A stretch of DNA of 32,000 bases from Desulfotalea psychrophila LSv54. GTDB lineage: Bacteria; Desulfobacterota; Desulfobulbia; Desulfobulbales; Desulfocapsaceae. The notes under the pieces are model-generated. The model was not told the origin of the DNA. It worked only from the letters and a program-made list of their open reading frames with translations, and did no database searches. The translations under genes and the position numbers were made by a program. Shown piece by piece: positions 11,474 through 32,000 of this stretch; the first letter of the stretch is position 1; each line of letters starts with the position of its first letter. Location: the NCBI RefSeq assembly GCF_000025945.1, contig NC_006138.1, forward strand, positions 1,650,001 through 1,682,000, given 5' to 3'.

Positions 11474-11554
11474 AGGTTGAAGATCTCATTATGAAGATAT
11501 TATTTAGTTTCAGAATAAATGTCGTACCTTCAAAAACTGTTTTTTTATCTGAGA

Positions 11555-11588
11555 GCCACGGAACAGAAATTTTTTTCTGATCCGTGGC
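11555..11588 (-). other. Long stem-loop between the DASS transporter gene and the sensor kinase gene (possible internal attenuator or processing site)
   Basis: GCCACGGA-CAGAAA / TTTCTG-TCCGTGGC arms form about 14 bp with one T-T mismatch. No tight U-tract follows on the minus strand. Confidence 0.4.
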
Positions 11589-11649
11589 CTTTATTATGTT
11601 CCATCCCACTTAACAAAAAAGAGGATGTTACTTTTTATGAAGTCTTCCT

Positions 11650-13170
11650 TTAGATATATATCTTCATACCCATGAGTGGCCAGATAAATTGTACTGAAAT
11701 CCAGACAACAACCATCAAGACTATACTCGCCGGGATGCCATAGAGTACGAATTGTCCTGTGGTGAATTGCTTGGAATTATAAGCAATTGCGTTTGGAGCT
11801 GCTCCCACCAGAAGGAGAAAGGGCATTCCTGCTGTGACCAGTGACGAGAAGAGAATCACCTCTCCGGTAACGCCCAGGTATGGAGCAATAACCAGGGCTA
11901 CGGGCAGTGAGATGGCGATGGCTGCCACATTCATAATGAAGTTGGTCATTATCATGACGAAGAAGGCCATGCCAAGGATGAAGACAATGGCCGGCGCATC
12001 GGTGAAGAGCTGAAGCCAGTTAACGGCAAGCCACTTTGCCGCCCCCGTATCCCAGAGGCAAAAACCAATGGACATGGCACCTGCAAAGAGAAGTATGATG
12101 TTCCAGGGAATCTCTTCAAGGTCATCGATATCTAAAATGTTAAAGATAAAAAAGCAGATGGTGCCTACCAGCATTACCCCCGTTTTGTCAAAATTGGCGA
12201 AAATAGGGACAAAATTTTTCAGGGCAATGACCAGAATAATTAAGAAGACGATCATAAGGGCAATTATTTCGTTTCGGGTCCAGGCCCCGAGTTCTATATA
12301 CATTTTTTTGGATCTTTCCTGGAGGCCCGGGATACTGTCTTTTTCGGGTTTGCAGAATACCATGAAATAGCCCCAGAGCAGGAAGACCATCAGCCAGCCA
12401 ATGGGGAACATGTACATGGTTAATTCGAAAAATGAGATGTCAATATTGGTGATATCTTTGTAGAAACCAAGGGCTACAGCCCCACGTGCGGCCCCCAGCA
12501 GGGTGACAATACTGCCGGCCCCGGCAACGAAGGCCATACCGATAAAGAGTCCTCGACCAAAGCGGGTTTTGTCTCCCTCCTTGTCCACGTAGAGAGCATG
12601 GATGGTCATGAGGAGTGGAAACATTGTTGCTGCCACCGCCGTGTGGGCCATGAGATGGGTAAGGGCTGCCGTCATAACAAAGCAACCGAGATAGATCCTG
12701 CTCGTCTTCTCACCGATTATTGAGAGCATCTTGTAGGCGATTCTTTTGGTCAGGCCTGTCTTGGTAAAGACCATGCCGATGACAATGGAACCAAAGATAA
12801 AGAGCACCGATGGATCCATGAAATCTTTGAAAGCAATCTTGGCTGGTCGAATAAGAAAGAGTGCCTGAGCCGCGCCAATGGCAAGGCTGGTGACGCCAAT
12901 GGGGACAACTTCAAAAACCCACCAGATTGCGGCGAGGCCAAAGAGGGCAAGCGCTCCCTTTGCTTCGTGGCTGAGGGGAAACTCTGTGCCGGCGGGGTCG
13001 ATTGCCGGTGCCCAGTTTGGGGCATAGTAGATTGCCAGGAAAACACCAAGTCCAAGCAGGAGGAAAAAAATTCTTTTTATATCAATTTTCGTTGTTGAGG
13101 GTGTGTCTTTTCCGGAGCTTTCCTTTTGTAGGAGCTGATTATCACTTGCATCTATTTGTGATGCTGGCAT
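11650..13170 (-). CDS. DASS/SLC13-family anion:sodium symporter (divalent anion permease)
   Basis: A 506-aa polytopic membrane protein with internal two-fold architecture. Its C-terminal hairpin motif GAAPNAIAY resembles the DASS (S/A)xPN signature. A GGAGG RBS lies 5 nt before the ATG at 13170. Confidence 0.8.
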   Translation of the reverse strand: MPASQIDASDNQLLQKESSGKDTPSTTKIDIKRIFFLLLGLGVFLAIYYAPNWAPAIDPAGTEFPLSHEAKGALALFGLAAIWWVFEVVPIGVTSLAIGAAQALFLIRPAKIAFKDFMDPSVLFIFGSIVIGMVFTKTGLTKRIAYKMLSIIGEKTSRIYLGCFVMTAALTHLMAHTAVAATMFPLLMTIHALYVDKEGDKTRFGRGLFIGMAFVAGAGSIVTLLGAARGAVALGFYKDITNIDISFFELTMYMFPIGWLMVFLLWGYFMVFCKPEKDSIPGLQERSKKMYIELGAWTRNEIIALMIVFLIILVIALKNFVPIFANFDKTGVMLVGTICFFIFNILDIDDLEEIPWNIILLFAGAMSIGFCLWDTGAAKWLAVNWLQLFTDAPAIVFILGMAFFVMIMTNFIMNVAAIAISLPVALVIAPYLGVTGEVILFSSLVTAGMPFLLLVGAAPNAIAYNSKQFTTGQFVLYGIPASIVLMVVVWISVQFIWPLMGMKIYI

Positions 13171-13278
13171 GGTTGCCTCCAGGGATATAAGTCAGGCACT
13201 AAAGCTTGTCAGGCGCAGAGGGCACACCTCAGCTGTCTGTTTTAGTTGCACCTTTAATTTTTTGTAAGGTCGGGGTTG

Positions 13279-13719
13279 TTACCAGGCCCTGTTCTTTAAG
13301 ATCTCTTTGATCGCTTCTGTGGCTTTTTCTTGTGAGATAAGGATTCTTTTATCTTTTGCCTCACTGATTTTTTCTAGAAGTTTTGGGAGATCCAGAGGTT
13401 TTTCTAAGAAATCTTCAGCACCGAGCTTTATTGCCTCTGTACTTGCCTGTATGGTGCCATGGCCACTGAGCATGATTATTTCAGTGTCCGGTGCCGTTTC
13501 CTTGAGCTTTTTCAAGGTCTCCAGGCCATCCATGCCGGGCATGGTGAGGTCGAGGACAACGACATCAAATTTTTCCTTTTCGATAAGTTTTAAGGCATCC
13601 TGGCCGCAGGTGGATGTGCTGACGGTGAGGCCTCGTATTTGTAGACGATTTGAAAGAGTCTCAATAAAATCCTTTTCATCATCAACCAAAAGTACCCGTG
13701 CTTTTATTGTCTCTGCCAT
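13279..13719 (-). CDS. Single-domain response regulator (receiver only, 146 aa)
   Basis: VLLVDDE, VVVLDLTMPGMDGLE, MLSGHG and LEKP are present. There is a GGAG RBS and no output domain. Confidence 0.9.
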   Translation of the reverse strand: MAETIKARVLLVDDEKDFIETLSNRLQIRGLTVSTSTCGQDALKLIEKEKFDVVVLDLTMPGMDGLETLKKLKETAPDTEIIMLSGHGTIQASTEAIKLGAEDFLEKPLDLPKLLEKISEAKDKRILISQEKATEAIKEILKNRAW

Positions 13720-13730
13720 GGTCTGCTCCT

Positions 13731-14942
13731 CTATGCTGATTTTTGCTGATGGCTTTTATTGGCAGCATTGATGGCTGCAGAAAGTTCCTCTATATCGACG
13801 GGCTTATTCATATAGGCAAATGCCCCAAGGCTCATACACTCCTTCTCATCTTCCAGATCACCATGTCCGGTGAGGATAATGATCTCGATTTCGGGGTATT
13901 GCTTTTTTGTTCTGTGGAGAACCTCTACACCATGCATGCCTGGCATTTTGAGGTCAAGAACCATGACATCGGGCCGGTCCTCTTTGAGAAGTTCCAAGGC
14001 GTCTTCGCCGTTATAGACACCGTAGGTGCCGACATCGCGACTAATAAGACGCTGTGAAACTGTTTGGACAAACTCCTGTTCATCGTCAACAAAGAGTACC
14101 TTGGATGGTAACTCAAATTTTTGTTGGCGGTATATAGAATCCGAATAATCAATCGCCTTGCTTGCCTTTATATCCTTTACTCCGGCAATATCTGAGATGA
14201 GCGATGTGAGATCAGCTGTGAGCTTGTCAAAGTTGAAAACAGTTTTATGAACCTTTAAGTCAACACTCCCTCCCTGGCAGGTAACGGTGAGGGCATGGCC
14301 ATTCTCTAACAATTTTTGCTCAACTTCCGCAGCAGAGAGCATGTCCTTGATTGCCTGGAGGGAATCGGCTGATCGGAGCACTGAAGTTTTTCTATAAAAG
14401 CTGGTTATTTGATTGACAATCTCTTTGAGGTTTTGCCCATTATGTGGAATAATTATATCGTAGAGGGAGGAGTCAAAAGCCTCTTTCTTATAGAGAAAGT
14501 CTGACCAGCTATAGGCTTTACTGTCCTCTTGTCTAATTCTTTTCAGGGCTTCTTTTACAGAAAACCCCTCAGCCTGTGCCTGTTGAACTCTTTCCTCTCT
14601 GTTGCCTGTGACAAGTACGGTGAGGACCTCTGTTATTTTTAGTGGAATAAGCAGGCTGTGGTAGCCAAAAAAGAGATATTTATCGCCGGTACTTAATTTC
14701 TTGACCAAGATCTGGCGGAACATGTTTATGGCTTTCTCTTTTTTCAAGGTGAATTGATTAAAGACTGATGTCTTGTCTGTGAGCAATGTTCTTAGTGGAT
14801 CTTCCTGGCAATGAAAATGGCTGGCAGTTTCTTTAATAAGATCTTCGTCGCCGTATTTCGTTAGCTGGAGCTGTCCGGACAACTCATTAATAATTTCTGT
14901 GCCTTGGCTGAATTCGTATGGGAAAAAAGCAATTGATGACAT
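13731..14942 (-). CDS. Cytidylate-kinase-like (degenerate P-loop) domain protein with a C-terminal receiver domain
   Basis: About 190 aa at the N-terminus resemble the cytidylate-kinase-like family pattern (REERV...EGxSxKEALKRIRQxD...YDIIIP), but the Walker A position reads FSQGT. A middle segment of about 90 aa is unassigned. The C-terminal REC has VLFVDDE, VMVLDLKMPGMHG, ILTGHG and MNKP. The ATG at 14942 follows AGAGGAG; the track's TTG start at 14972 is less likely. Confidence 0.75.
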   Translation of the reverse strand: MSSIAFFPYEFSQGTEIINELSGQLQLTKYGDEDLIKETASHFHCQEDPLRTLLTDKTSVFNQFTLKKEKAINMFRQILVKKLSTGDKYLFFGYHSLLIPLKITEVLTVLVTGNREERVQQAQAEGFSVKEALKRIRQEDSKAYSWSDFLYKKEAFDSSLYDIIIPHNGQNLKEIVNQITSFYRKTSVLRSADSLQAIKDMLSAAEVEQKLLENGHALTVTCQGGSVDLKVHKTVFNFDKLTADLTSLISDIAGVKDIKASKAIDYSDSIYRQQKFELPSKVLFVDDEQEFVQTVSQRLISRDVGTYGVYNGEDALELLKEDRPDVMVLDLKMPGMHGVEVLHRTKKQYPEIEIIILTGHGDLEDEKECMSLGAFAYMNKPVDIEELSAAINAANKSHQQKSA

Positions 14943-20698: not shown

Positions 20699-21886
20699 AT
20701 GACACGACAACAGAAGAAAGCGCTTTTTATCCTCTGGTTTGGCTATGCCAATTTTTATCTGTTGCGACTCAACTATGGTATAGCTATGCCGGGAATCATG
20801 GCCGAATATGGCTATAGCAGAGGAGAACTTGGCCTGGGGGCAAGTTTCTTTTTTATGCTCTATGCCCTTGGCCTGGTGGTAAGTGGGGTGCTCAGTGACA
20901 GACTAGGACCGAAAAGGATTTTGGTCTTTGGCCTGCTCTGCTCCATTCTTGTTAATCTGGCCTTTCCGTCTATTGCTGGTAGCCTCTTCGGCATTGTTTT
21001 TCTTTGGTCTATAAATGGTTTTTTTCAGGCAATGGGCTGGGCGCCTACGGTGAAGATGACTTCACCGTGGTTTGAGGAGGGGCAGAAGGGTCGGGCCTCG
21101 GCGATTCTTGGTACCTCATATATTATCGGCAGTGCTCTGAGTTGGCTTCTTGCCGGTTATCTGGCCCAAAACTACTCCTGGCGTCTTGTCTTCTATGGCC
21201 CAACCCTCATCGCCGCAGTCATCTTAGCTCTCTACCTGATCTATATAGAGCAATATCCACAGGCCACTACCCCTGCCAGACAGTCTATCTTGAAGACCTT
21301 GGGCGCTGTTTTGGCTGAGAGGGAAATTTGGTATGTGGGTTTTACCCTTTTAGGGCTTAATATCGTGATCTATGGATTTATGACCTGGGCACCCATATAC
21401 TATTTTGAGCAGGGTGGAGATATTCAGGAGGCGACCCATAAGGCCCTCCTTTTTCCCATAGCCGGAGCCCTGGGTAGCCTTTTTATAGGCTGGCTTTGTG
21501 ATAAGTTCTTTGCCAAGAGGCGACTCTTTGTCGGCGTCATGGCCATGGTTGTTCTTCTCTTCTCTGTCCTTCTTTTTCCCTATAGCACCGATCCTCTTGT
21601 CTCGCTGACCTGTCTTGTTTTCGTCGGGGCCACAGCCTATGGTACAGAGGTTCTTCTGGTTTCTCAGTTTCCCATGATATTTGGCAAGCAAAAGAATATG
21701 GCAACCATTGTTGGCGTTATTGATAGTATAGGTTATCTGGGAGCAGCCATAACCAGTGTGACAAGCGGCTTTTTGACTGATATTTGGGGCTGGTCAGCGG
21801 CCTTCTATTTCTGGATAGGAGGTGGCTTGTTCGCTATGATCTTCCTCCTTATCTGTCAGCGACAGCTGGGGCATACCCTTCGGTAA
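20699..21886 (+). CDS. MFS transporter
   Basis: A 395-aa protein with about 12 TM segments and an MFS loop 2-3 motif (SGVLSDRLGPKR). Substrate is not inferable. Confidence 0.85.
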   Translation: MTRQQKKALFILWFGYANFYLLRLNYGIAMPGIMAEYGYSRGELGLGASFFFMLYALGLVVSGVLSDRLGPKRILVFGLLCSILVNLAFPSIAGSLFGIVFLWSINGFFQAMGWAPTVKMTSPWFEEGQKGRASAILGTSYIIGSALSWLLAGYLAQNYSWRLVFYGPTLIAAVILALYLIYIEQYPQATTPARQSILKTLGAVLAEREIWYVGFTLLGLNIVIYGFMTWAPIYYFEQGGDIQEATHKALLFPIAGALGSLFIGWLCDKFFAKRRLFVGVMAMVVLLFSVLLFPYSTDPLVSLTCLVFVGATAYGTEVLLVSQFPMIFGKQKNMATIVGVIDSIGYLGAAITSVTSGFLTDIWGWSAAFYFWIGGGLFAMIFLLICQRQLGHTLR

Positions 21887-21900
21887 ATTTTCTTTAAGGC

Positions 21901-21932
21901 ACCTTGGACAAAACGTTCTGAAAGGTTTTTTT
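21901..21932 (+). terminator. Probable intrinsic terminator after the MFS gene
   Basis: ACCTT...AAGGT forms an imperfect stem with an inner GGAC/GTTC pairing, followed by T7. Confidence 0.4.
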
Positions 21933-21984
21933 GCGAAAATAGAGTTGCGTCTTTTCATTTTTCTAGTGTATATTTAGATGAGTT

Positions 21985-22008
21985 GTGTCGAATGTCGACA
22001 TTTTTTAT
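21985..22008. promoter_or_regulatory. Candidate GntR-type operator (site 1, autoregulatory) about 50 nt upstream of the GntR gene
   Basis: GTGTCGA-ATGTCGACAT. The 10-bp perfect palindrome ATGTCGACAT (21992-22001) recurs at 24113-24122 and 27833-27842. Confidence 0.55.
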
Positions 22009-22053
22009 CAAAAGCGCATAATGCATAAAATAGAATAGGGTTTCATAAACAAT

Positions 22054-22746
22054 ATGGCAGGTATAGTAAAAATTACTTATAGTGGCCAGGTAGTTAAATA
22101 TATTAAAGATATGGTCCTTAAGGGGGAGCTTGCCCCTGGCGATCAGGTTAAAGAAGCAGAAATATCAAAAAAATTAGATATTAGCCGTGCCCCTGTTCGA
22201 GAGGCAATGCAAATACTTATAAACGAAGGTCTGGTTTCTTCTAAGCCTCAAAAGAGAAAATATATAACCGCATTAACCTCGAAAGAAATTATTGATAGTT
22301 ATTTTACGGGCGGTGTTCTTGAGGCAGCAGCGGTTGCCAAGTCCCTGGACGCCTATTTAGCAAAAGATATTGTAAGGCTCGAAAAAATTGTAGAAAAAAT
22401 GCATGATCTCGCTGACTCGGACAGTCGTAGCGAACAGCTTGCCACCCTCGACAATCATTTTCACGACGTGCTGTTTTCCCGTGTTGATAATCAACTATTG
22501 ATTGAGCTTTGTCGGCGATCCTGTCAGGAGATTTCAAAATTTTTGCTATTTCGTTATTGGCGTAATCTGTTTTCAGTGGCAGAGGTCTATTCCCGTCATA
22601 AGGCAATTGTTGATGCTATAAAAAATGGTGACCTCGTGGAATTAGAGAAAGTCATTAGAAAGCATTATAATGATTCAGGACTGAGAATGTCACGCTATGG
22701 TATAGATAAAATTGATTTAACAAATAAAGGAATAAATCAAGACTGA
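22054..22746 (+). CDS. GntR-family transcriptional regulator, FadR/FCD subfamily
   Basis: The N-terminal winged HTH is GELAPGDQVKEAEISKKLDISRAPVREAMQILINEGLV. It is followed by an all-helical domain of about 150 aa with His residues typical of FCD domains. Confidence 0.9.
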   Translation: MAGIVKITYSGQVVKYIKDMVLKGELAPGDQVKEAEISKKLDISRAPVREAMQILINEGLVSSKPQKRKYITALTSKEIIDSYFTGGVLEAAAVAKSLDAYLAKDIVRLEKIVEKMHDLADSDSRSEQLATLDNHFHDVLFSRVDNQLLIELCRRSCQEISKFLLFRYWRNLFSVAEVYSRHKAIVDAIKNGDLVELEKVIRKHYNDSGLRMSRYGIDKIDLTNKGINQD

Positions 22747-22766
22747 TTTAACAGCCGAGGGGGGGG

Positions 22767-22857
22767 CGAGCACACTGTTGGCGTCCCCTAAGCAAAGAAT
22801 ATCTTCGACCTGTAATCATCATTCCAAGTAGCCTCTTAAGTTTATTCCTTTGGCTGG
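22767..22857 (+). repeat. 91-bp direct repeat, copy A (left flank of the IS)
   Basis: It aligns base-for-base, without gaps and with scattered substitutions, to 23909-23999 (CGAGCAYACTGTTGGCGTCCCCTAA...TGTAATCATCATTCCAA...CTTTGGCTGG). Confidence 0.75.
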
Positions 22858-22878
22858 AGCTGGGTGAGTAGAATAAGT

Positions 22879-23909
22879 GGGCGTTGTTGAACAAATCCAA
22901 ACGGCAAGTTTTCAATGCCCCATCGCTGTACTGTTCTAACGACAAACAGCTCCTCTAACGGACATTCCCAAAGCAGTTATCTTGCTTAATGCTTTGACGC
23001 AAGCCGACTTACCACTTGCGCATTGTAATCGCGAAGGCTCAATTTGCCACTGATCAACTGTTTGTAGCGATACATCGCTGTTTCAGCAAGAGACCTTTGA
23101 TGATACCCCTGTGCTTGCTTTCCACTCTTTCAACTCACCTTTTCGCAATGCTCCTATAGCCTCATTTCTTGGATGGCCTTCCTTCCACATAGCAGCATTT
23201 TTCCGTGGTGGATGAGCAGACACCTTTGATTCCAATAATTTCATAGCACTCTTTCGTATCGTATGCACCATTGTCTGATATCTGCTTTATGCGTCGTCGA
23301 AGAGGATTCAGTAGATGCCCTAAAACTTTGGAGTCATGAACGCGCTCTAGCGAGATTTCACCACTTAGGCGATCAGTCTCGGCATCGATTACAAGGTGAA
23401 TCTTACGCTAGGTTTTACGTTTGGAAGCCCCATGTTTTCTGACGCTCCACTCTCCTTCTCCATAGACTTTAAGCCCCGTCGAATCGATATGCTTAATCGG
23501 CCCACGACTTGGCAGCCTATAATTCACCTTAACAGTTTGGGCACGTCTGCTAACAGGTGTATCAGGTGCCTGGAGGTCGATATCTATCAGTTCAAAAAGT
23601 GAATTCAGAAAACCTTCAGTACCTCTGAGAGATAGGCCGTAAATGGTTCCACATTAAACAGGTGGTTATTGCATCATCAGTGTACTTGCGGCTACGGCCA
23701 CGCTGTCCCGATGGTGTCGTGCTGTACCAACTTTCAATTGCTTTCTTGTCCACCCAAAATGTCAACGCCATTGCTTCAGTGTCCTGTTATATTCCGGCCA
23801 ATTTTTGATCTTTCCCCTGCTCTCTCATTGCTCCTCCAATGTTTTCTGTATGTTACAAGAAAACATTGGAGGAGCAATGCTAGCAATTTCTATTTGTGCA
23901 ACAAGGCCC
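22879..23909 (-). mobile_element. IS903-group (IS5-family) insertion sequence, about 1.03 kb, with an inactivated transposase
   Basis: The terminal inverted repeats are GGGCGTTGTTGAACAAAT (22879-22896) and, on the reverse complement at 23892-23909, GGGCCTTGTTGCACAAAT (16/18 identical, close to the IS903 IR GGCTTTGTTGAATAAAT). The internal coding sequence resembles the IS903 transposase. No 9-bp target duplication is present. Confidence 0.8.
22986..23828 (-). pseudogene. IS903-like DDE transposase, broken by several frameshifts and stops
   Basis: Pieces in three frames match the transposase:
- IKNWPEYNRTLKQ
- LTFWVDKKAIESWYSTTPSGQRGRSRKYTDDAITT
- IDSTGLKVYGEGEWSVRKHG
- DNGAYDT
- SAHPPRKNAAMWKEGHPRNEAIGALRK...WK
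- GYHQRSLAETAMYRYKQLISGKLSLRDYNAQVV. Confidence 0.75.
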
Positions 23910-23999
23910 GAGCATACTGTTGGCGTCCCCTAATCAAAGAACACCTTCGCTTTGTAATCATCATTCCAATCAGTCTTTTAAGCTTGTTTCTTTGGCTGG
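23909..23999 (+). repeat. 91-bp direct repeat, copy B (right flank of the IS)
   Basis: See copy A; it has the same orientation. Confidence 0.75.
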
Positions 24000-24105
24000 C
24001 TGCCCCACAAAGATGTTGCCTCAGAGCTCATGAGAAACGTCTAAAAAAGACCAATTTCCCACAATTTAATATCTTGACAAACAAAAAAGGATACGTTAAT
24101 CCTGT

Positions 24106-24129
24106 ATAGCAAATGTCGACATTTGACAT
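24106..24129. promoter_or_regulatory. Candidate GntR-type operator (site 2) upstream of ridA copy 1, downstream of a TTGACA box (24074-24079)
   Basis: ATGTCGACAT (24113-24122) is followed by TTGACAT. The left heptamer is degenerate (ATAGCAA). Confidence 0.55.
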
Positions 24130-24178
24130 TTGGCACAGGTTGTTTAAACGTCTTTCATCAAACTTTGGAGTTATGTAA

Positions 24179-24574
24179 GTGGCAACTATGATTGAAAAAA
24201 AGATTATTGAGACAGAGGCTGCCCCAGCAGCAGTAGCAGCGTATTCACAGGCTGTGCAAGCGGGGAATTTATTATTTACCTCAGGGCAGTTACCCCTTGA
24301 TCCTTCATCGGGAAAAATAGTTACGGGGGATATTGTTGCCCAGGCCCATCAGGCGATAAAAAACCTTATTGCCATCGTTGAGGCTGCGGGAAGTAGCATC
24401 GACGATGTCATAAAAGTAACTGTTTATCTTGCAGACGTTAAAGATTCTGCAGCAGTTAACGAAGTCTATAACCAATATTTTTTTCAGCCCTATCCAGCTC
24501 GTAGTGCCTTTCAAGTAGCGGCACTCCCTCTGGCTGCAGGTTTAGAGATTGAAGCAATAGCAATTGTTAAATAA
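24179..24574 (+). CDS. ridA: RidA-family reactive enamine/imine deaminase (copy 1)
   Basis: YjgF/YER057c/UK114 hallmarks are present: APAAVAAYSQAV, LFTSGQLPLDP, and the conserved Arg in PYPARSAFQVAALP. The GTG at 24179 is 8 nt after GGAG; the ATG at 24188 is an alternative start. Confidence 0.9.
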   Translation: MATMIEKKIIETEAAPAAVAAYSQAVQAGNLLFTSGQLPLDPSSGKIVTGDIVAQAHQAIKNLIAIVEAAGSSIDDVIKVTVYLADVKDSAAVNEVYNQYFFQPYPARSAFQVAALPLAAGLEIEAIAIVK

Positions 24575-24599
24575 ATTTTTCATAAAGGATAAAAAAGTC

Positions 24600-25598
24600 A
24601 TGAATCTCACCCAATTCCCAAGAAGAAATTATCTCCAAGGACCTACTCCTATTGAAGCAGCCCCAAGGTTTTCTAAGGCCCTGGGTGGTAAGGTAAATGT
24701 TTTCATCAAGCGTGATGACCTGTTGCCCGGTTGTGCCGGTGGTAATAAGACCAGAAAATTGGATTTTTGTATTGCTGATGCGATAGAGAAGGGCGCTGAT
24801 ACGATTATTACCTGTGGTCCTGTTCAGTCTAATCACTGTCGTTTGACCCTTTCTTGGGCAGTTAAGGAAGAGATGGATTGTCATCTTATACTTGAAGAGC
24901 GTGTTCCGGGAAGCTATAAAGAAGATGGTTCCGGTAACAACTTCCTTTTCAATCTGATGGGCGTAAAGAGCACTCAGGTTGTTCCTGGTGGTTCCGATAT
25001 GATGGGTGAGATGGAGAAGCTTGCCAAGGAGCTTGAGGCTCAGGGCAAAAAACCTTATATCATTCCAGGCGGTGCCTCTAACGTTCTTGGCGCGACCGGT
25101 TATGTTGCCTGTGCCCAGGAAATTCAACAACAGCTCTTTCAACAAAACATTAATATAACTGATATAGTAGTCCCGAGTGGTAGCGCCGGTACCCATGCAG
25201 GTGTCGCCGTCGGTATGTACGGAATTAATTCCGGTATTAGGGTAAGCGGTATCAATGTAAGTAAGCCTAAGGATGTCCAGGAAGAGAATGTTTATAAGTT
25301 GGCATACGAAACTGCAAAAGCAGTAGGTGTGTGCGGAGAGCTTCCACGCGGTGAGATAACCTGTTTTGATGGCTATGTAGGTGCAGGTTATTCTCTGCCC
25401 ACCGATTCAATGGTTGAGGCAGTAAAGCTTCTTGCTCGAACTGAGGCAATCCTGCTTGATCCTGTTTATTCCGGCAAGGTTATGGCTGGTATGATCGACC
25501 TTATTCGAAACGATTATTTCGCTCCAGGAACAAATGTTTTATTTCTGCATACCGGTGGATCTCCCGCCCTCTATGCATATACCGATACGTTTAAATAG
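24600..25598 (+). CDS. PLP-dependent deaminase/lyase of the D-cysteine desulfhydrase / ACC deaminase / cysteate sulfo-lyase family (copy 1)
   Basis: The PLP-lysine motif GGNKTRKLDF is present, together with a Gly-rich phosphate loop (SGSAGTHAG) and the C-terminal LHTGG. Length is 332 aa from the ATG at 24600. Confidence 0.88.
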   Translation: MNLTQFPRRNYLQGPTPIEAAPRFSKALGGKVNVFIKRDDLLPGCAGGNKTRKLDFCIADAIEKGADTIITCGPVQSNHCRLTLSWAVKEEMDCHLILEERVPGSYKEDGSGNNFLFNLMGVKSTQVVPGGSDMMGEMEKLAKELEAQGKKPYIIPGGASNVLGATGYVACAQEIQQQLFQQNINITDIVVPSGSAGTHAGVAVGMYGINSGIRVSGINVSKPKDVQEENVYKLAYETAKAVGVCGELPRGEITCFDGYVGAGYSLPTDSMVEAVKLLARTEAILLDPVYSGKVMAGMIDLIRNDYFAPGTNVLFLHTGGSPALYAYTDTFK

Positions 25599-25608
25599 CT
25601 AAATTCAT

Positions 25609-25640
25609 GGCACCGTGACCCTTGTCTCGGTGCCTTTTTT
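25609..25640 (+). terminator. Intrinsic terminator after deaminase copy 1
   Basis: GGCACCG / CGGTGCC is a 7-bp stem with a 12-nt loop, followed by T6. Confidence 0.8.
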
Positions 25641-25707
25641 ATATAGTTTAGTTAAAAAGGTAATGACTTCTGTCAAACCTACAGCATAATTATGGAGGAA
25701 TTTTATA

Positions 25708-26976
25708 ATGAAACTGTATCACAAAATAATGATTGGCTTAGTTCTTGGTGTAATTGCCGGTCTGATTCTTGGAGAAAAAGCCGAATACTTAAAGCCTATC
25801 GGTGATATCTTCATTCGTTGCCTTCGTTTAATAGTTGTGCCCCTGATTCTTTCAACTCTTATTACAGGTGTTGTCAGCACTGGAAATATTAAAAATCTAG
25901 GAAAAACAGGAATTAGTACTCTGGTGTACTTCATGGTGACAACCACCTTGGCTGTTTGTATTGGATTACTTATTGCAAATATCTTTCAACCTGGAGCAGG
26001 ACTTTCCCTTGGTGAACTTAAAGTTTTTAAAGTTCCCGATACGCCCGGGCCTGCCCAGATGATCGTCGGCATGTTTCCACTAAACCCGATGGAGGCTCTT
26101 GCAAAAGGCAATGTCCTGCAGATCATAATTTTTGCATTACTCTTTGGAGCCGGACTCTCCATGGCCGGCGACAAAGGTAAACCCATTGCTGATTTTTTCC
26201 AAAGTCTTGCGGAAGTAATGTTCAAAGTTTCTGATCTCGTTATTAGCTTTGCTCCATATGGTGTCTTTGCTCTTATTGCATGGACAACCGGAAAATTCGG
26301 GCTGGATATATTGATGCCAATGGGGAAACTCATTATGTGTACTCTTCTTGCCGCTTTCGTACATATTATTGTATCTTATACCCTAATTGTGGCAACTGTC
26401 GCACGTATTTCTCCTTTAGCTTTCCTGAAAAAGACGATGGAGCCAGCGCTGGTAGGTTTGTCGACCTGTAGTGCCGCCGCCGCGTTCCCGTTTTCCATGC
26501 GTGCACAAAAACAGCTGGGTGTTTCACCAAAAGTCTCAGGGTTTACACTGCCCATGGCGCTTACCATAAATATGGACGGAACAGCCCTGTACCAGGCGGT
26601 TGCAGCTATGTTTATCGCTAATGCTTATGGAATTGATCTGTCATTGACCCAGCAGGGAACAATTGTGGCAACGGCAGTTTTAGCATCGGTTGGAACTGCG
26701 AGTATTCCAGGTGGGGGATTGATTATGCTGACCATGGTGCTCCAGTCGGTTGGTTTACCTCTTGAGGGGATTGCTATTGTTGCCGGAATTGATCGAATTT
26801 TGGATATGTTCCGCACAACAACTAATATCTTCGGTGATAACTCTGCCGGTGTCGTAGTTGCGTCTTTAGTAGGTGAGTTAGATCGTGAAATAGCAAACAC
26901 CCCTCTCGATGAATTGGAGCAAGGCAGTGGCGTTCACCTAGACAGTGACGGTCATATTGTTGACGAATTGGGATAA
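25708..26976 (+). CDS. Dicarboxylate/amino acid:cation symporter (DAACS, GltP/DctA/SstT-like)
   Basis: A 422-aa protein with typical DAACS motifs (SSAAxLP-like STCSAAAAFP, TINMDGTALYQ, DRxxDMxRT as DRILDMFRTTTN). A GGAGGA RBS lies 8 nt upstream. Confidence 0.9.
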   Translation: MKLYHKIMIGLVLGVIAGLILGEKAEYLKPIGDIFIRCLRLIVVPLILSTLITGVVSTGNIKNLGKTGISTLVYFMVTTTLAVCIGLLIANIFQPGAGLSLGELKVFKVPDTPGPAQMIVGMFPLNPMEALAKGNVLQIIIFALLFGAGLSMAGDKGKPIADFFQSLAEVMFKVSDLVISFAPYGVFALIAWTTGKFGLDILMPMGKLIMCTLLAAFVHIIVSYTLIVATVARISPLAFLKKTMEPALVGLSTCSAAAAFPFSMRAQKQLGVSPKVSGFTLPMALTINMDGTALYQAVAAMFIANAYGIDLSLTQQGTIVATAVLASVGTASIPGGGLIMLTMVLQSVGLPLEGIAIVAGIDRILDMFRTTTNIFGDNSAGVVVASLVGELDREIANTPLDELEQGSGVHLDSDGHIVDELG

Positions 26977-27038
26977 CTTTCCTACCTTACCATCATGAAC
27001 AGTTCAAGGTAGGACATTCTTCGTTTTGTATTCTGTAA

Positions 27039-27066
27039 GGCCTCCTAACTTAGGAGGCCTTTTGTT
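27039..27066 (+). terminator. Intrinsic terminator after the DAACS gene
   Basis: GGCCTCC / GGAGGCC is a 7-bp stem with a 7-nt loop, followed by TTTTGTT. Confidence 0.7.
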
Positions 27067-27734
27067 CGTAACGATATATTGCAGTTTCGGCGAGTGAATG
27101 CTGATGATACCCCGGTACTTTGCTTCCAATCCTCTAGCGCCCCTTTTCGAAGAGCTTTCACGGCGTTGTTGCGCGGATGTCCCTCTTTCCAAAATCCAGC
27201 ATTTTCTCGTGGGGGATGGGCCGACACCCTTGTTTGCAATAATCTCATAAGATTTTGTTCTGTTATAAACGACATATGCTTGAATTTGCTTTATTTTTTG
27301 TCGTAACGGATTGACCAAAGCCCCGAGCACTTCAGAATCATGAATCGTATCTAAAGATACTTCCGTGCTGATTATCTGATGCGTTTCAGTATTTACCGTC
27401 ACATGAAGTTTACGTCAAATCCTGTGTTTCTCTGCATCATGTTCTTCACTTGCCCTCGCAAAGACAGACTGAGCACGGATTTTAGCATTAGACTATCGCA
27501 ACAATTATCACTGTCATCTTTCGTTCTCTCCGCCCAGATTGCTCAGCCTTGTATCAACTTTTGGTGACACCCTCTTCTACTCAGAACGTTAACGCTGTTG
27601 CTTCAAAGCTCTGTTGTATTTAGGCTAATTTGTGGTCTTTTTTATGTTCTTCCCTATGCATCTTTCAGTGTTTTCTAAATGTTACAGAAAACACCATTGG
27701 TCAACCTGAGCAAGATATTTGTTTAACAACGCCC
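27067..27734 (-). mobile_element. Truncated, degraded second copy of the IS903-group element (one IR retained)
   Basis: The reverse-complement IR at 27717-27734 reads GGGCGTTGTTAAACAAAT. Transposase fragments include SAHPPRENAGFWKEGHPRNNAVKALRKGALEDWK and GYHQHSLAETAIYRY. The far end is missing and coding stops at about 27067. Confidence 0.7.
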
Positions 27735-27825
27735 TGTTGCACTTATTGTACTAAGCCAGCTCTGAAAAGTGCCATTTTTCATATTTTAATATCTTGACAA
27801 ATAAAAAATAATACGGTAACTCTGT

Positions 27826-27849
27826 ATGTCGAATGTCGACATTTGACAT
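27826..27849. promoter_or_regulatory. Candidate GntR-type operator (site 3, most complete) upstream of ridA copy 2, downstream of a TTGACA box (27794-27799)
   Basis: ATGTCGAATGTCGACATTTGACAT is a 24-bp palindrome, 22/24 self-complementary, centred on ATGTCGACAT (27833-27842). Confidence 0.6.
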
Positions 27850-27891
27850 AGGTTGTTTAAACGTCTTTCATCAAACTTTGGAGTTATGTAA

Positions 27892-28287
27892 GTGGCAACT
27901 ATGATTGAAAAAAAGATTATTGAGACAGAGGCTGCTCCAGCAGCAGTAGCAGCGTATTCACAGGCTGTGCAAGCGGGGAATTTATTATTTACCTCAGGGC
28001 AGTTACCCCTTGATCCTTCATCGGGGAAAATAGTTACCGGGGATATTTTTGCCCAGGCTCATCAGGCGATAAAAAACCTTATTGCCATTGTTGAAGCTGC
28101 AGGAAGTAGCATCAATGATGTCATAAAAGTAACTGTTTATCTTGCAGACATTAAAGATTCTGCAGCAGTGAACGAAGTCTATACCCACTATTTTTTTCAG
28201 CCCTATCCAGCTCGTAGTGCCTTTCAAGTAGCGGCACTCCCTCTGGCTGCAGGTCTGGAGATTGAAGCAATAGTAATTGTTAAATAA
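27892..28287 (+). CDS. ridA: RidA-family reactive enamine/imine deaminase (copy 2)
   Basis: Differs from copy 1 at 6 of 131 residues. The motifs are the same. Confidence 0.9.
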   Translation: MATMIEKKIIETEAAPAAVAAYSQAVQAGNLLFTSGQLPLDPSSGKIVTGDIFAQAHQAIKNLIAIVEAAGSSINDVIKVTVYLADIKDSAAVNEVYTHYFFQPYPARSAFQVAALPLAAGLEIEAIVIVK

Positions 28288-28312
28288 ATTTTTCATAAAG
28301 GATAAAAAAATC

Positions 28313-29311
28313 ATGAATCTCACACAATTCCCAAGAAGAAATTATCTCCAAGGACCTACTCCTATTGAAGCTGCACCAAGGTTTTCTAAGGCCCTGGGTG
28401 GTAAGGTAAATGTTTTTATTAAGCGTGATGATCTGTTGCCTGGTTGTGCTGGTGGTAATAAGACTAGAAAATTAGATTTTTGTATTGCTGATGCGATAGA
28501 GAAGGGCGCTGATACGATTATTACCTGTGGTGCTGTTCAGTCTAATCACTGCCGTTTGACCCTTTCTTGGGCAGTTAAGGAAGAGATGGATTGTCATCTT
28601 ATACTTGAAGAGCGTGTTCCTGGAAGCTATAAAAAAGATGGTTCCGGTAACAACTTTCTTTTCAATCTGATGGGCGTAAAGAGCACTCAGGTTGTTTCTG
28701 GTGGTTCCGATATGATGGGTGAGATGGAAAAGCTTGCCAAGGAGCTTGAGGCTCAGGGCAAAAAACCTTATATCATTCCAGGCGGAGCCTCTAATGCTAT
28801 TGGAGCAACCGGTTATGTTGCCTGTGCCCAGGAAATTCAGCAACAGCTTTTTGAGCAAAACATTAATATAACTGATATAGTTGTCCCGAGTGGTAGTGCC
28901 GGTACCCATGCTGGTGTTGCCGTTGGTATGTACGGAATTAATTCGGGTATTACAGTAAGTGGTATCAATGTAAGTAAGCCTAAGGCTGTCCAGGAAGAGA
29001 ATGTTTATAAATTGGCCAAGGAAACTGCAAAAAGAGTAGGTGTCCGCGGAGAGTTTCCACGCGATGAGATAACCTGTTTTGATGGCTATGTCGGTGCAGG
29101 GTATTCGTTGCCCACCGATTCAATGGTTGAGGCTGTAAAGCTTCTTGCTCGAACTGAGGCAATCCTGCTTGATCCTGTTTATTCCGGCAAGGTTATGGCT
29201 GGTATGATCGACCTTATTCGAAACGATTATTTTGCCCCGGGGGCAAATGTTTTATTTCTGCATACCGGTGGATCTCCCGCCCTCTATGCATATACCGACA
29301 CGTTTAAGTAA
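28313..29311 (+). CDS. PLP-dependent deaminase/lyase of the D-cysteine desulfhydrase / ACC deaminase / cysteate sulfo-lyase family (copy 2)
   Basis: Differs from copy 1 at 14 of 332 residues. The GGNKTRKLDF motif is the same. Confidence 0.88.
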   Translation: MNLTQFPRRNYLQGPTPIEAAPRFSKALGGKVNVFIKRDDLLPGCAGGNKTRKLDFCIADAIEKGADTIITCGAVQSNHCRLTLSWAVKEEMDCHLILEERVPGSYKKDGSGNNFLFNLMGVKSTQVVSGGSDMMGEMEKLAKELEAQGKKPYIIPGGASNAIGATGYVACAQEIQQQLFEQNINITDIVVPSGSAGTHAGVAVGMYGINSGITVSGINVSKPKAVQEENVYKLAKETAKRVGVRGEFPRDEITCFDGYVGAGYSLPTDSMVEAVKLLARTEAILLDPVYSGKVMAGMIDLIRNDYFAPGANVLFLHTGGSPALYAYTDTFK

Positions 29312-29320
29312 GCATAAAAA

Positions 29321-29361
29321 ACCTTCTACTGCTCTAAAAGAGCAGTAGAAGGTTTTTTTTT
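29321..29361 (+). terminator. Strong intrinsic terminator after deaminase copy 2
   Basis: ACCTTCTACTGCTC / GAGCAGTAGAAGGT is a perfect 14-bp stem with a 5-nt loop, followed by T9. Confidence 0.85.
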
Positions 29362-29414
29362 ATTTATGATGGTTGTTGTTAAACCATATACTTCACTAAG
29401 TAGGAGAACAGAGA

Positions 29415-30410
29415 ATGAATTTTTTCAAAAAGCTCGTAGCAACTGCTGTACTTAGTCTATGTTTTGGTGTCACAGGCGCTGTTGCCGGCCCCACGGTTAT
29501 TAAACTCGCGCATCCCAATTTACCCCAGCATCCCATGGGGCAAGCATTCATTAAGTTTAAAGCCCTGGTAGAAGAGAGAACAAACGGTGAGTTTCGAGTA
29601 GATATTTTCGATAGCTCCAAGTTTGGTAATTTCGATAGTGTTGTTCAAGGATTACAGCTTAATATGCTCCAGATGGGGTCAGCTGCAACACCAAATCTTT
29701 CACCTTTTTCCGATGAATTCCTTATCTTTGATCTTCCCTTTCTTTTCCCAAGTTATGAGGCGGCAGATAAGATCACCGATGGCCCCATCGGTATGAATGC
29801 AACCAAGGCGCTGGAACCAAGTGGTATTATCGGTCTTGGCTATATCGAGATTGGTTTTCGTAATCTTTGGAATAACAAGCGTGCTGTGACAACCCTTGAA
29901 GATGCAAAAGGCTTGAAAATTCGCTCTACTCCTTCTAAGGCCCACATCGGGACTCTTAAGGCCCTTGGTATGAATCCAACTCCAATTTCATGGGGTGAGG
30001 TTTATACTGCCCTGCAACAAAAGACTGTTGATGGAATTGATATTGATTTGAACCTTGCGTGGCATAATAACTTCCCAGAAGTTAACAACCATTTGACTAT
30101 CGTGAACAGCCTGTATAGTCCTCATCTCGTGATGATCTCTAAACGCTTTCTTGATAGCTTAAACCCTGAAAACAGAGAGATTATTCTCTCTAGCTTTCAA
30201 GAGGCGAAGTTGTATGAGCGTAAGTTGATTCGTGATGGCGAAGCAGAAATTCTTGCTCAGCTTGAAGGGAAGGGCGTGACCGTAACTACTCTTTCTCCCG
30301 AAGAACGTCAGCGTTGGGCAGAGAAGACTGCAGTTGTTTATGAGCAGTTTCAGGATCGCATTGGTAAAGACCTCATCGAACAGGCAAGAGCCACCATGGC
30401 TGTAAAGTAG
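29415..30410 (+). CDS. TRAP transporter substrate-binding protein (DctP type)
   Basis: It has a signal peptide (ATAVLSLCFGVTGAVAG) and is 331 aa. DctP-family features are present, including the conserved Arg context (GLKIRS). An AGGAGA RBS is present. Confidence 0.9.
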   Translation: MNFFKKLVATAVLSLCFGVTGAVAGPTVIKLAHPNLPQHPMGQAFIKFKALVEERTNGEFRVDIFDSSKFGNFDSVVQGLQLNMLQMGSAATPNLSPFSDEFLIFDLPFLFPSYEAADKITDGPIGMNATKALEPSGIIGLGYIEIGFRNLWNNKRAVTTLEDAKGLKIRSTPSKAHIGTLKALGMNPTPISWGEVYTALQQKTVDGIDIDLNLAWHNNFPEVNNHLTIVNSLYSPHLVMISKRFLDSLNPENREIILSSFQEAKLYERKLIRDGEAEILAQLEGKGVTVTTLSPEERQRWAEKTAVVYEQFQDRIGKDLIEQARATMAVK

Positions 30411-30424
30411 AGGTATTTGAAAAC

Positions 30425-30460
30425 AAATAACCAAACAGATAGGTATTTGTTTGGTTATTT
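30425..30460 (+). other. Intercistronic stem-loop between the TRAP binding-protein and permease genes
   Basis: Perfect 13-bp inverted repeat AAATAACCAAACA / TGTTTGGTTATTT with a 10-nt loop. It is AT-rich with no long U-tract. Confidence 0.5.
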
Positions 30461-30481
30461 TATAGAAGTGGAGATCTTTGT

Positions 30482-30988
30482 ATGGGAATAATACCAAAAT
30501 CCAAAATACCTAATATTGAAATGCTGATTTCTTCTGGTGCTCTGGTGGTAATGACAGTTATTACCGTTGTCCAGGTTTTCAATCGATATGTGTTGCAAAA
30601 TTCACTTGATTGGTCGGAAGAACTTGCTCGTTATCTTTTTATTTGGGCAGTGTATGTTGGTTGTAGTTATGCTGTCTATAAAGATAGGCATCTTGAAGTA
30701 ACGATTCTTCGAACAATTTGTAACGGGAAGTTCGCTCGATCCTTAACACTCCTTTCTCTCACTCTCAATCTATTATTTTGTATCTTTGTTACAGTCGTTG
30801 GAATTAAGTTTGTTTTATTTCTTGCAAGCACAGGACAAAAGACCCCTGCTTTGGAAATTAGCGCTTACTGGGTATATCTTTCCATGCCTTTCGGTTTTGG
30901 TATGATGGGCCTAAGAGTAATTGAGAGAATCTGGTGGATCATGACGGGTAAGATTGATCCTACAGCTGTAGACATAATCAAGGAGTAG
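30482..30988 (+). CDS. TRAP transporter small permease (DctQ type)
   Basis: A 168-aa protein with four TM segments and a WSEELARYLFIW motif typical of DctQ. Confidence 0.85.
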   Translation: MGIIPKSKIPNIEMLISSGALVVMTVITVVQVFNRYVLQNSLDWSEELARYLFIWAVYVGCSYAVYKDRHLEVTILRTICNGKFARSLTLLSLTLNLLFCIFVTVVGIKFVLFLASTGQKTPALEISAYWVYLSMPFGFGMMGLRVIERIWWIMTGKIDPTAVDIIKE

Positions 30989-30994
30989 TTATCC

Positions 30995-32000
30995 ATGGAC
31001 TTCACTATAATATCTATCTTTGTTTCATTAGCAATATTTCTCCTTGCCAGCGTACCCATCGGCATTGCTATTGGTATGAGTGTCATTGTGGGCATGACCT
31101 TTGGCGATATGCTGCCCTATGAATTTTTGATTCAAAAGATGGTGACATCATTAGATGTGTTTCCTCTTATGGCGGTACCTTTTTTCATAATGGCAGGCGA
31201 AGTTATGCAAAAGGGAAGCATGGCGCAACGATTACTGAATGTGTCTCGCGCATTGGTAGGACATTTAACAGGTGGTATGGCTCATATCTCCATACTGACA
31301 AGCATGTTTTACGGTTCTCTTTCTGGATCAGCCCCTGCAACGGTTGCGGCCGTCGGTGGAATTATGATTCCGGCGATGGAAAAGGAGAATTATAGCAAAT
31401 CTTTTGCCACGGCCGTTAATACGGCGGCTGGCTGTTTGGGGGTTATTATTCCTCCAAGTGTGCCACTTATTATTTACGGTACAACAGCAGGTGTTTCTGT
31501 TGGTGATCTTTTTATTGCAGGCGTTATTCCGGGCTTGTTTATTGGTCTTGCCCTGATGCTCTGTAGCTATGTTTTAGCAAAAAAATATGGTTTTACAGGT
31601 TCTGCGCAGCAGGCAACTATTGGTGAGATTTTAACGGCGGTTTTAGCCTCTCTTCCCGCCCTGATGGTTCCTATTATTGTTTTGGGCGGAATTTATGGTG
31701 GTTTTACGACACCTACGGAAGCTGGTGTTATTGCGGTTGTTTACGCACTTGTTGTTGAAGGCCTTTTCCTGCGGACCTTAAGTGTGAGCAAAGTTGTGGA
31801 GGTTTTCAAATCTACGGCGCTGACAACAGCCTCTATTTTTCTTGTTGTTGCAACGGCGACAGCCCTTGGGCAAATTTTACTTTTTTATAACCTTCCTAAC
31901 CAATTAGTAGAAATATTGAGTAATATTTCAGACAATAGATATGTTCTTATTGCGATAATACTCTTGTTTTTGATTGTGATGGGAACCTTTATGGATGCCC
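30995..32000 (+). CDS. TRAP transporter large permease (DctM type), 3' end outside the window
   Basis: It is not in the ORF track because it has no stop inside the window. My translation from the ATG at 30995 reads MDFTIISIFVSLAIFLL...FPLMAVPFFIMAGEVMQKGSMAQRLL...IIPPSVPLIIYG, which is typical DctM. AGGAG lies 9 nt upstream, overlapping the end of dctQ. Confidence 0.9.
   Translation, partial: MDFTIISIFVSLAIFLLASVPIGIAIGMSVIVGMTFGDMLPYEFLIQKMVTSLDVFPLMAVPFFIMAGEVMQKGSMAQRLLNVSRALVGHLTGGMAHISILTSMFYGSLSGSAPATVAAVGGIMIPAMEKENYSKSFATAVNTAAGCLGVIIPPSVPLIIYGTTAGVSVGDLFIAGVIPGLFIGLALMLCSYVLAKKYGFTGSAQQATIGEILTAVLASLPALMVPIIVLGGIYGGFTTPTEAGVIAVVYALVVEGLFLRTLSVSKVVEVFKSTALTTASIFLVVATATALGQILLFYNLPNQLVEILSNISDNRYVLIAIILLFLIVMGTFMDA

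Follow-up and report, generated by a model that had tools for sequence, protein, structure and literature searches.

A 32,000-nucleotide stretch of the genome of Desulfotalea psychrophila LSv54 (NC_006138.1, positions 1,650,001 to 1,682,000; hereafter the window) contains two operons in tandem, 3.7 kb apart, each of which opens with ridA, the gene of an enamine/imine deaminase, and cuyA, the gene of a predicted D-cysteate sulfo-lyase. The two ridA-cuyA pairs are very similar and are followed in one case by the gene of a DAACS/SDF-family symporter and in the other by the genes of a TRAP transporter. Comparison with related loci makes it probable that these are two old sister operons for D-cysteate use, that their enzyme genes were homogenised by gene conversion, and that the remnants of insertion sequences (IS) found beside them are bystanders. 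Both the literature and the current annotation already list the two copies, and the duplication as such is known; what the present analysis adds is evidence that their similarity goes back to gene conversion between two operon types of old standing. A preliminary description of the window had read the same similarity as a recent segmental duplication mediated by the IS elements or by their homology.

The repeat and the two operon types

The two copies of the repeat, their genes and the transporter genes that follow them are given below (numbers preceded by L designate loci of relatives).

24045-25603, + strand: repeat copy 1 (promoter, operator, ridA, cuyA), DAACS-linked, putative recipient of the conversion; self-comparison and relatives' alignments
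24074-24079, + strand: common TTGACA -35 box, copy 1; read from sequence
24179-24574, + strand: ridA1, enamine/imine deaminase, 131 aa from GTG; Pfam Ribonuc_L-PSP, E 9e-41
24600-25598, + strand: cuyA1, predicted D-cysteate sulfo-lyase, 332 aa; NF052482, 507 bits
25609-25634, + strand: hairpin and T-run between cuyA1 and the DAACS gene; dG -22.6, z -5.1; orthologous to the hairpin of L004 and L005
25708-26976, + strand: DAACS/SDF-family symporter; Pfam SDF, E 4e-131; protein 90% identical to the DAACS of L004 and L005
27037-27061, + strand: DAACS gene terminator, at which the orthology to DAACS-type operons ends; hairpin analysis and alignment
27765-29318, + strand: repeat copy 2 (promoter, operator, ridA, cuyA), TRAP-linked, putative donor of the conversion; self-comparison and relatives' alignments
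27794-27799, + strand: common TTGACA -35 box, copy 2; read from sequence
27892-28287, + strand: ridA2, 131 aa; Pfam and TIGR00004 profile matches
28313-29311, + strand: cuyA2, predicted D-cysteate sulfo-lyase, 332 aa; NF052482, 515 bits
29316-29358, + strand: strong hairpin terminator or attenuator after cuyA2; 20-bp stem, dG -29.4, z -6.7
29415-30410, + strand: TRAP solute-binding protein DctP; Pfam DctP, E 1e-77, and TIGR00787 match
30482-30988, + strand: TRAP small membrane subunit DctQ; domain match
30995-32000, + strand: TRAP large membrane subunit DctM, running past the window end; TIGR00786, 314 bits

Self-comparison of the window by blastn aligned 24065-25603 with 27785-29318 as collinear segments that are 93.8% identical over 1541 columns, with 86 mismatches and three gap openings, in good agreement with the two ~1.53-kb blocks of about 95% identity that had been described. 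A repeat search extended a fainter similarity (81%) back to 24045 and 27765. This promoter part, 24045-24129 against 27765-27849, is non-coding and is followed just downstream by a 7-nt indel, after which 79 mismatches and no indel were found in the 1463 nt from 24136 to the stop codon. The ridA copies differ at 17 of 396 nt (18 in the earlier count) and the cuyA copies at 60 positions, while the residue changes, 6 of 131 in RidA and 14 of 332 in the second enzyme, were exactly those counted before. The similarity starts near the common TTGACA box and breaks off at the two stop codons (25598 and 29311), as had also been recognised. That one locus was assembled twice has a negligible probability, since nothing was found in its favour, 86 positions differ, the flanks are different and orthologous to two operon types of relatives, and both proteins are separate database entries.

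In the related loci, the genes adjoining ridA-cuyA fall into two arrangements. A TRAP type, with the order ridA-cuyA-dctPQM-X-gntR in which X is a conserved protein, was found in L001, L002, L006-L009, L011, L079 and L081. A DAACS type, with the order ridA-cuyA-DAACS-gntR, was found in L004, L005, L015 and L082, and the operons of this type used for the breakpoint comparison below come from Desulfopila and Desulforhopalus. In the window, copy 1 is followed by its own terminator and a DAACS/SDF gene and copy 2 by a strong terminator and a TRAP system, so that the preliminary description was right in seeing two paralogous catabolic modules joined to different transporter classes. A different arrangement was observed in Maridesulfovibrio (L012, 7957-16175), in which a single ridA-cuyA has the DAACS gene upstream and dctPQM-X-gntR downstream, with operators before DAACS and before ridA.

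A close likeness is found in Desulfosediminicola ganghwensis (CP050699; L081, L082), a member of the same family that carries both operon types in one genome. Its two operons differ from those of D. psychrophila in that they lie ~50 kb apart in opposite orientation, each has its own gntR, and they are not homogenised, with CuyA proteins 80% identical and the genes 72.8% identical in DNA. Together with other IS-free relatives that carry complete units, D. ganghwensis indicates that the operon types are old paralogs that exist without IS, and both are widely distributed among related sulfate reducers. The IS-mediated origin that had been proposed for the pair is therefore at odds with the comparison of related genomes, in which IS-free relatives carry both types as old paralogs unrelated to such elements.

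The evidence for conversion is found at the 3' limit of copy 1. Compared with L004 and L005, the DNA of the window is ~55-80% identical across ridA-cuyA, with ~70% inside the tract, and the identity then jumps to 88-89% from the first base past the cuyA1 stop codon, the spacer hairpin included. Across the DAACS gene and as far as the end of its terminator the identity is 77-94%, and the similarity stops at the start of the second IS remnant, IS-B. No such step was seen when the copy-2/TRAP side was compared with TRAP-type relatives. At the two mismatches nearest the stop, 25586 and 25595, copy 1 has the base found in L004 and L005, so that the junction falls in the final ~15 nt of cuyA. As the flank of copy 1 is orthologous to a cuyA-DAACS spacer from the first base past the stop, a cuyA would already have been there and then been overwritten.

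The rates of divergence lead to the same view, as the following protein identities indicate.

Among DAACS-type relatives: DAACS 95, 86, 85%; CuyA 95, 86, 86%
Window against DAACS-type relatives: DAACS 90, 90, 88%; CuyA 81, 80, 79%
Window against TRAP-type relatives: DctP 81-83%, DctM 81-83%; CuyA 82-83%

The TRAP genes and CuyA thus diverge in step, while DAACS and CuyA are discordant for the window. In a neighbour-joining tree, the two CuyA proteins of the window paired at 100% bootstrap and the pair fell inside the DAACS-linked clade in 1% of replicates. In a scan of species-representative genomes, no CuyA exceeded 82% identity, and a collection of 5.8 billion proteins held no CuyA between 83% and 100%.

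A true segmental duplication, by an IS or by illegitimate recombination, would mean that a copy of ridA-cuyA landed before a DAACS gene that had no cuyA. The finding that the two copies are by far each other's nearest relatives is what would be expected from such an event. However, the limits of the repeat, at the promoter and at the cuyA stop, coincide exactly with those of the homology between the operon types. Such limits are predicted by conversion, and a random duplication would need luck at both of them. The spacer orthologous to L004 and L005 is complete from the first base past the stop, which is hard to obtain through an illegitimate join, and the four relatives that have a DAACS gene after cuyA (L004, L005, L015 and L082) all carry their own ridA-cuyA there. 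The homogenised tract is confined to the common homology and its flanks are of different ancestry, as is characteristic of gene conversion.

The sequence of events that best fits these data would start from a DAACS-type operon with its own ridA-cuyA that once adjoined a resident TRAP-type operon. Non-reciprocal homologous recombination, that is gene conversion, would then have homogenised the stretch between the promoter and the end of cuyA. Most likely it was the DAACS-linked module that was overwritten by the TRAP-linked sequence, at a time that corresponds to a synonymous divergence (dS) of ~0.13-0.22. The earlier word 'recent' can be kept in this relative sense, dS 0.13-0.22 being a relative age. 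The promoter identity of 81% fits the same age as the dS of the genes. One stretch of 170 nt at the 5' end holds a single mismatch (P ~0.02 with a window size chosen post hoc, hence a weak test) and there may be a small later conversion patch at the 5' end of ridA.

It was also considered whether the promoter similarity is merely an old constrained homology. This was rejected, as the two copies of the window share promoter sequence that neither of them shares with relatives.

The insertion sequence remnants

Two IS remnants and several short repeats lie around the DAACS-linked copy.

22767-22857, + strand: 91-nt direct repeat, copy a, left of IS-A and after the gntR stop codon; 85% identical to 23909-23999
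22858-22879, + strand: 22-nt motif AGCTGGGTGAGTAGAATAAGTG, directly adjoining IS-A at its left terminal repeat; inverted partner at 27740-27761
22879-23909, - strand: IS-A, a full-length, decayed IS5-family (IS903-group-like) element; terminal repeats 22879-22896 and 23892-23909
23909-23999, + strand: 91-nt direct repeat, copy b, from the right end of IS-A; 85% identical to 22767-22857
27062-27734, - strand: IS-B, an IS5/IS903-type remnant with its left end missing; right terminal repeat 27717-27734
27740-27761, - strand: the 22-nt motif again, inverted, 5 nt beyond the right terminal repeat of IS-B; motif search

The transposase of IS-A is interrupted by several stops and frameshifts, and its stitched product matched DDE_Tnp_1_5 (E 4e-25) and DDE_Tnp_1 (E 7e-16) and was 58% identical to the IS5-like transposases of ISSpu16/ISEc35. 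IS-B has an internal deletion of ~190 nt, and its stitched fragment also matched DDE_Tnp_1. Both are presumably members of the IS903 group. The terminal inverted repeats, of ~18 bp, are present at both ends of IS-A and at the right end only of IS-B. The same end of a minus-oriented element indeed precedes each block, at 23892-23909 and 27717-27734 as had been reported, and a further terminal repeat was found at 22879-22896. The distance from IS end to block start had been put at 75-155 bp; as measured here, copy 1 starts 136-156 nt and copy 2 31-51 nt from the IS end.

These elements provide arguments for an IS-mediated segmental duplication. IS5/IS903-type ends stand upstream of both copies in the same orientation, and IS-A has no target-site duplication (its flanks, GAATAAGTG and CGAGCATAC as read from the sequence, mismatch), which suggests a past IS-associated rearrangement. 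On the contrary, IS-A and IS-B are ~60% identical where they can be aligned and both lie outside the repeat. Remnants that are ~60% identical beside blocks that are 94% identical, with a silent-site divergence of ~0.2, imply that the IS were not copied together with the blocks. The IS remnants would also be poor substrates for homologous recombination. The absence of a target-site duplication in IS-A and of one end in IS-B likewise speaks against the IS-mediated duplication that the preliminary description had put forward. Taken with the limits of the repeat and the spacer of copy 1, these observations make a segmental duplication improbable, while still leaving it some weight.

The two remnants would rather be unrelated bystanders of different age that did not create the repeat but probably reshaped its flanks. 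IS-B abuts the DAACS terminator at the place where relatives carry gntR, and an IS-associated deletion next to this truncated element is likely to have removed the DAACS operon's own gntR. A near-perfect hairpin was observed inside IS-A at 23826-23879, near the right end and upstream of the transposase start, and a similar one in IS-B. An Rfam scan of 21800-30600 gave sub-threshold microRNA and small RNA matches on hairpins only, and no riboswitch or leader; the hairpin of IS-A is the source of false microRNA matches in that scan.

A composite transposon made of IS-A, ridA-cuyA-DAACS and IS-B was envisaged as well. Its geometry fits and both outer terminal repeats are present, but it was rejected in view of the ~60% identity of the IS copies, the lack of a target duplication and outer flanks that form a 22-nt inverted pair and not a direct repeat. 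The direct repeat beside IS-A, at 91 nt, greatly exceeds the length of a target duplication, and its core is absent from all 78 relatives' loci compared.

Enzymes, regulation and selection

Both PLP (pyridoxal phosphate) enzymes exceed the curated equivalog cut-off (450 bits) of the NCBIfam model for D-cysteate sulfo-lyase CuyA, NF052482, with 507.4 bits for CuyA1 and 514.8 bits for CuyA2, and they score under the cut-offs of the equivalog models for D-cysteine desulfhydrase and ACC (1-aminocyclopropane-1-carboxylate) deaminase. The D. psychrophila entry CAG36234.1 / WP_011188746.1, named 'D-cysteate sulfo-lyase', matches CuyA1 at 100% identity, and CuyA2 clusters at 90% with WP_041278495.1 / CAG36238.1. 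The 'PLP deaminase' of the preliminary description is thus, more specifically, a predicted D-cysteate sulfo-lyase, CuyA. The residues listed for a DcyD-type site are the PLP lysine with the adjoining Asn, a Ser-Asn pair, a catalytic Tyr responsible for D-stereochemistry and a Thr (PMC11193023). In the alignment, CuyA1 keeps all the DcyD active-site residues listed by Liu et al. 2024, and its GGNKTRKL, QSNH, PVYSGK and HTGG align with the motifs of Salmonella typhimurium DcyD. None of the 14 sites that differ between CuyA1 and CuyA2 falls on a listed catalytic residue.

The gene directly upstream of cuyA is ridA in both copies, and downstream lie the SDF/DAACS gene or the TRAP genes. The RidA copies score 165 and 163 bits with TIGR00004 (Rid family detoxifying hydrolase; cut-off 106), and the closest relatives of RidA1 in the Protein Data Bank are RidA proteins. 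The PARS motif aligns with the PAR of solved RidA-family proteins, and its Arg is taken here to be the catalytic, imine-binding arginine. In both RidA copies of the window the motif reads AAYSQA, against GPYSQ(A/G) in almost every relative examined and GSYSQP in L003. The window copies are 51-63% identical to relatives, most of which are ~57-72% identical among themselves, and the window RidA thus stands on a long branch.

From family membership, CuyA is expected to be a PLP-dependent enzyme that would cleave D-cysteate into sulfite and 2-aminoacrylate, and the sulfite could be respired by a sulfate reducer. RidA would convert 2-aminoacrylate/iminopropanoate into pyruvate and ammonia. With one operon that would run on into the DAACS/SDF symporter and the other into TRAP DctPQM, the likely gain from two copies is one enzyme pair fed by two uptake routes.

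The regulatory features of the window are the following.

21991-22002, + strand: operator-like palindrome AATGTCGACATT before gntR; exact 12-mer, overlapping a promoter-like site at 21995-22022
22054-22746, + strand: GntR/FCD-family regulator; Pfam GntR and FCD domains
24112-24123, + strand: operator AATGTCGACATT, copy 1; exact 12-mer before ridA1
27832-27843, + strand: operator AATGTCGACATT, copy 2; exact 12-mer before ridA2

The three exact copies of AATGTCGACATT compare with 0.13 expected by chance in the window. The same 12-mer was also found upstream of ridA or cuyA in the loci of 12 relatives. In relatives, a TTGAC box occurs at a similar distance upstream of the operator. The GntR protein of the window is 54-59% identical to the gntR products that close the cuy operons of relatives, its gene being upstream of the operons in the window and downstream in relatives. 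The placement of the motif makes this GntR/FCD protein a likely common repressor of both operons, and the operator in its own promoter region (21985-22022) suggests autoregulation. Directly upstream of gntR, at 20699-21886, lies the gene of a PgtP/GlpT-like MFS transporter (organophosphate:phosphate antiporter type, under curated cut-offs), which has no operator of its own.

The preliminary description had suggested that the modules are diverging toward different substrates or uptake routes. Copies that specialise, each matched to its transporter, might for example act on D-cysteate and on D-cysteine or another amino-sulfonate. The 14 CuyA and 6 RidA residue differences and the different transporter classes joined to the copies could be read in this sense. 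In CuyA, when polarised by relatives, nine derived residues were assigned to copy 1 and four to copy 2, with two ambiguous, and copy 1 shows an A-to-P change beside the active-site Ser-Asn motif and an I-to-L change at a site that is invariant in relatives. Nevertheless, the asymmetry of nine to four is small and unconvincing. The ratio omega of non-synonymous divergence (dN) to dS is 0.16 for ridA (dS 0.126, dN 0.020) and 0.10 for cuyA (dS 0.215, dN 0.021), and both copies are clearly kept under purifying selection. All the listed catalytic residues are conserved, both proteins are over the CuyA cut-off and the operator is identical. Moreover, the same TTGACA box and operator kept by both copies argue against divergent regulation. 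Specialisation on different substrates is therefore unlikely, and this part of the earlier suggestion is not supported.

Several observations weigh against the account of two old operons for D-cysteate use homogenised by conversion. In the protein tree, the TRAP-linked clade has weak (32%) and the DAACS-linked clade moderate (66%) support. The timing and direction of the conversion are deduced from concordant rates and one sharp breakpoint, with closest relatives at ~83% in CuyA. The 5' flank of copy 1 has no match in relatives, so that the earlier presence of a cuyA is proved by the 3' junction only; a blastn search of all relatives' loci with 22700-24180 and 26977-27891 gave no matches. The occurrence of IS903-type ends upstream of both copies in the same orientation is a coincidence that conversion leaves unexplained. 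The same is true of the 22-nt inverted pair AGCTGGNTNAGTANAATAAGTG, which brackets IS-A, ridA-cuyA-DAACS and IS-B and of which none is expected by chance. As for the enzymes, the function of CuyA is assigned from a profile score and conserved residues, and the CuyB racemase (PF01177) had no match among the scanned open reading frames of the window. In addition, D. psychrophila is described by Liu et al. 2024 (PMC11193023), citing Denger et al. 2006, as not growing on cysteate. The same paper found a CuyB nearby for 668 of 1720 CuyA, and a nearby CuyB is not obligatory for the family.

Comparable systems and wider meaning

According to PMC11193023, which cites Denger et al. 2006 on this point, D. 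psychrophila LSv54 has two CuyA copies and no CuyB racemase in their neighbourhood. As far as that citation conveys them, the two CuyA of Denger et al. 2006 are the same genes (CAG36234.1 and CAG36238.1). What is relayed there is that they exist and that no CuyB lies close to them, whereas the conversion history, the common operator and the anatomy of the IS come from the present analysis. The CuyA/CuyB/RidA/SDF cluster of Bilophila wadsworthia (PMC11193023) resembles the D. psychrophila loci by its PLP-dependent D-cysteate sulfo-lyase of the D-cysteine desulfhydrase family, by the adjoining RidA gene, by an SDF/DAACS-family transporter and by a host that respires sulfite or sulfate. In contrast, no CuyB was found in the window of D. 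psychrophila, which carries the enzyme pair in two copies. Copy 2 is linked to TRAP genes, after which relatives have the gene of a conserved protein without known family, and the regulator is of the GntR/FCD type with the AATGTCGACATT operator.

Tandem cuyA pairs a few kb apart were also found in L013 (Desulfovibrionaceae; 10001-14360) and L014 (Halodesulfovibrio sp.; 10001-12977). The copies cluster within each genome with 99% and 93% bootstrap, and they are 98% and 95% identical, compared with 91-93% between the genomes. This pattern points to concerted evolution. As in D. psychrophila, each copy lies behind the same operator, and the second is part of a ridA-cuyA-dctPQM-X-gntR operon. These loci differ in that their first cuyA copy is without ridA and no IS remnants were seen, and the transporter encoded after the first copy in L013 belongs by its Pfam match to the Na+/H+ antiporter family and not to DAACS.

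Protein X, of 407-417 aa, is the conserved product of a gene that separates dctM from gntR in those TRAP-type cuy operons that were examined (L001:14022-15263, L079:5390-6628, L081:14073-15320, L013:17334-18557 and L014:15923-17170) and has a homologue in D. psychrophila, P0182. It has no Pfam or NCBIfam match. About 409 homologues were found; those with a name are all labelled 'hypothetical' and all belong to sulfate reducers. An invariant motif rich in His and Asp is present at the N-terminus. AlphaFold gives a model of high confidence (pLDDT 90, pTM 0.91), of which the best matches among solved structures, to uridine phosphorylase, are weak (TM 0.23-0.38). Protein X is a candidate for a missing pathway step.

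A broader idea can be put forward as a tentative one, which is at present rather doubtful. The cuy loci of sulfate reducers may repeatedly hold one ridA-cuyA pair in concerted evolution on varied uptake systems (DAACS, TRAP and one resembling the Na+/H+ antiporter family). The TRAP branch may depend on the 410-aa protein X, which could supply a stereochemical or precursor step where CuyB is not nearby.

As regards annotation, the pair of 'PLP deaminases' would become two D-cysteate sulfo-lyase operons, which may provide sediment sulfate reducers with a route from organosulfonates to sulfite. The locus is also a worked example of how a high identity between tandem paralogs would date a gene conversion and not the origin of the paralogs, and of how nearby IS remnants can mislead. 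Finally, the common operator would define a small regulon, the two transporters are candidates for cysteate uptake, and the conserved protein X is worth testing.

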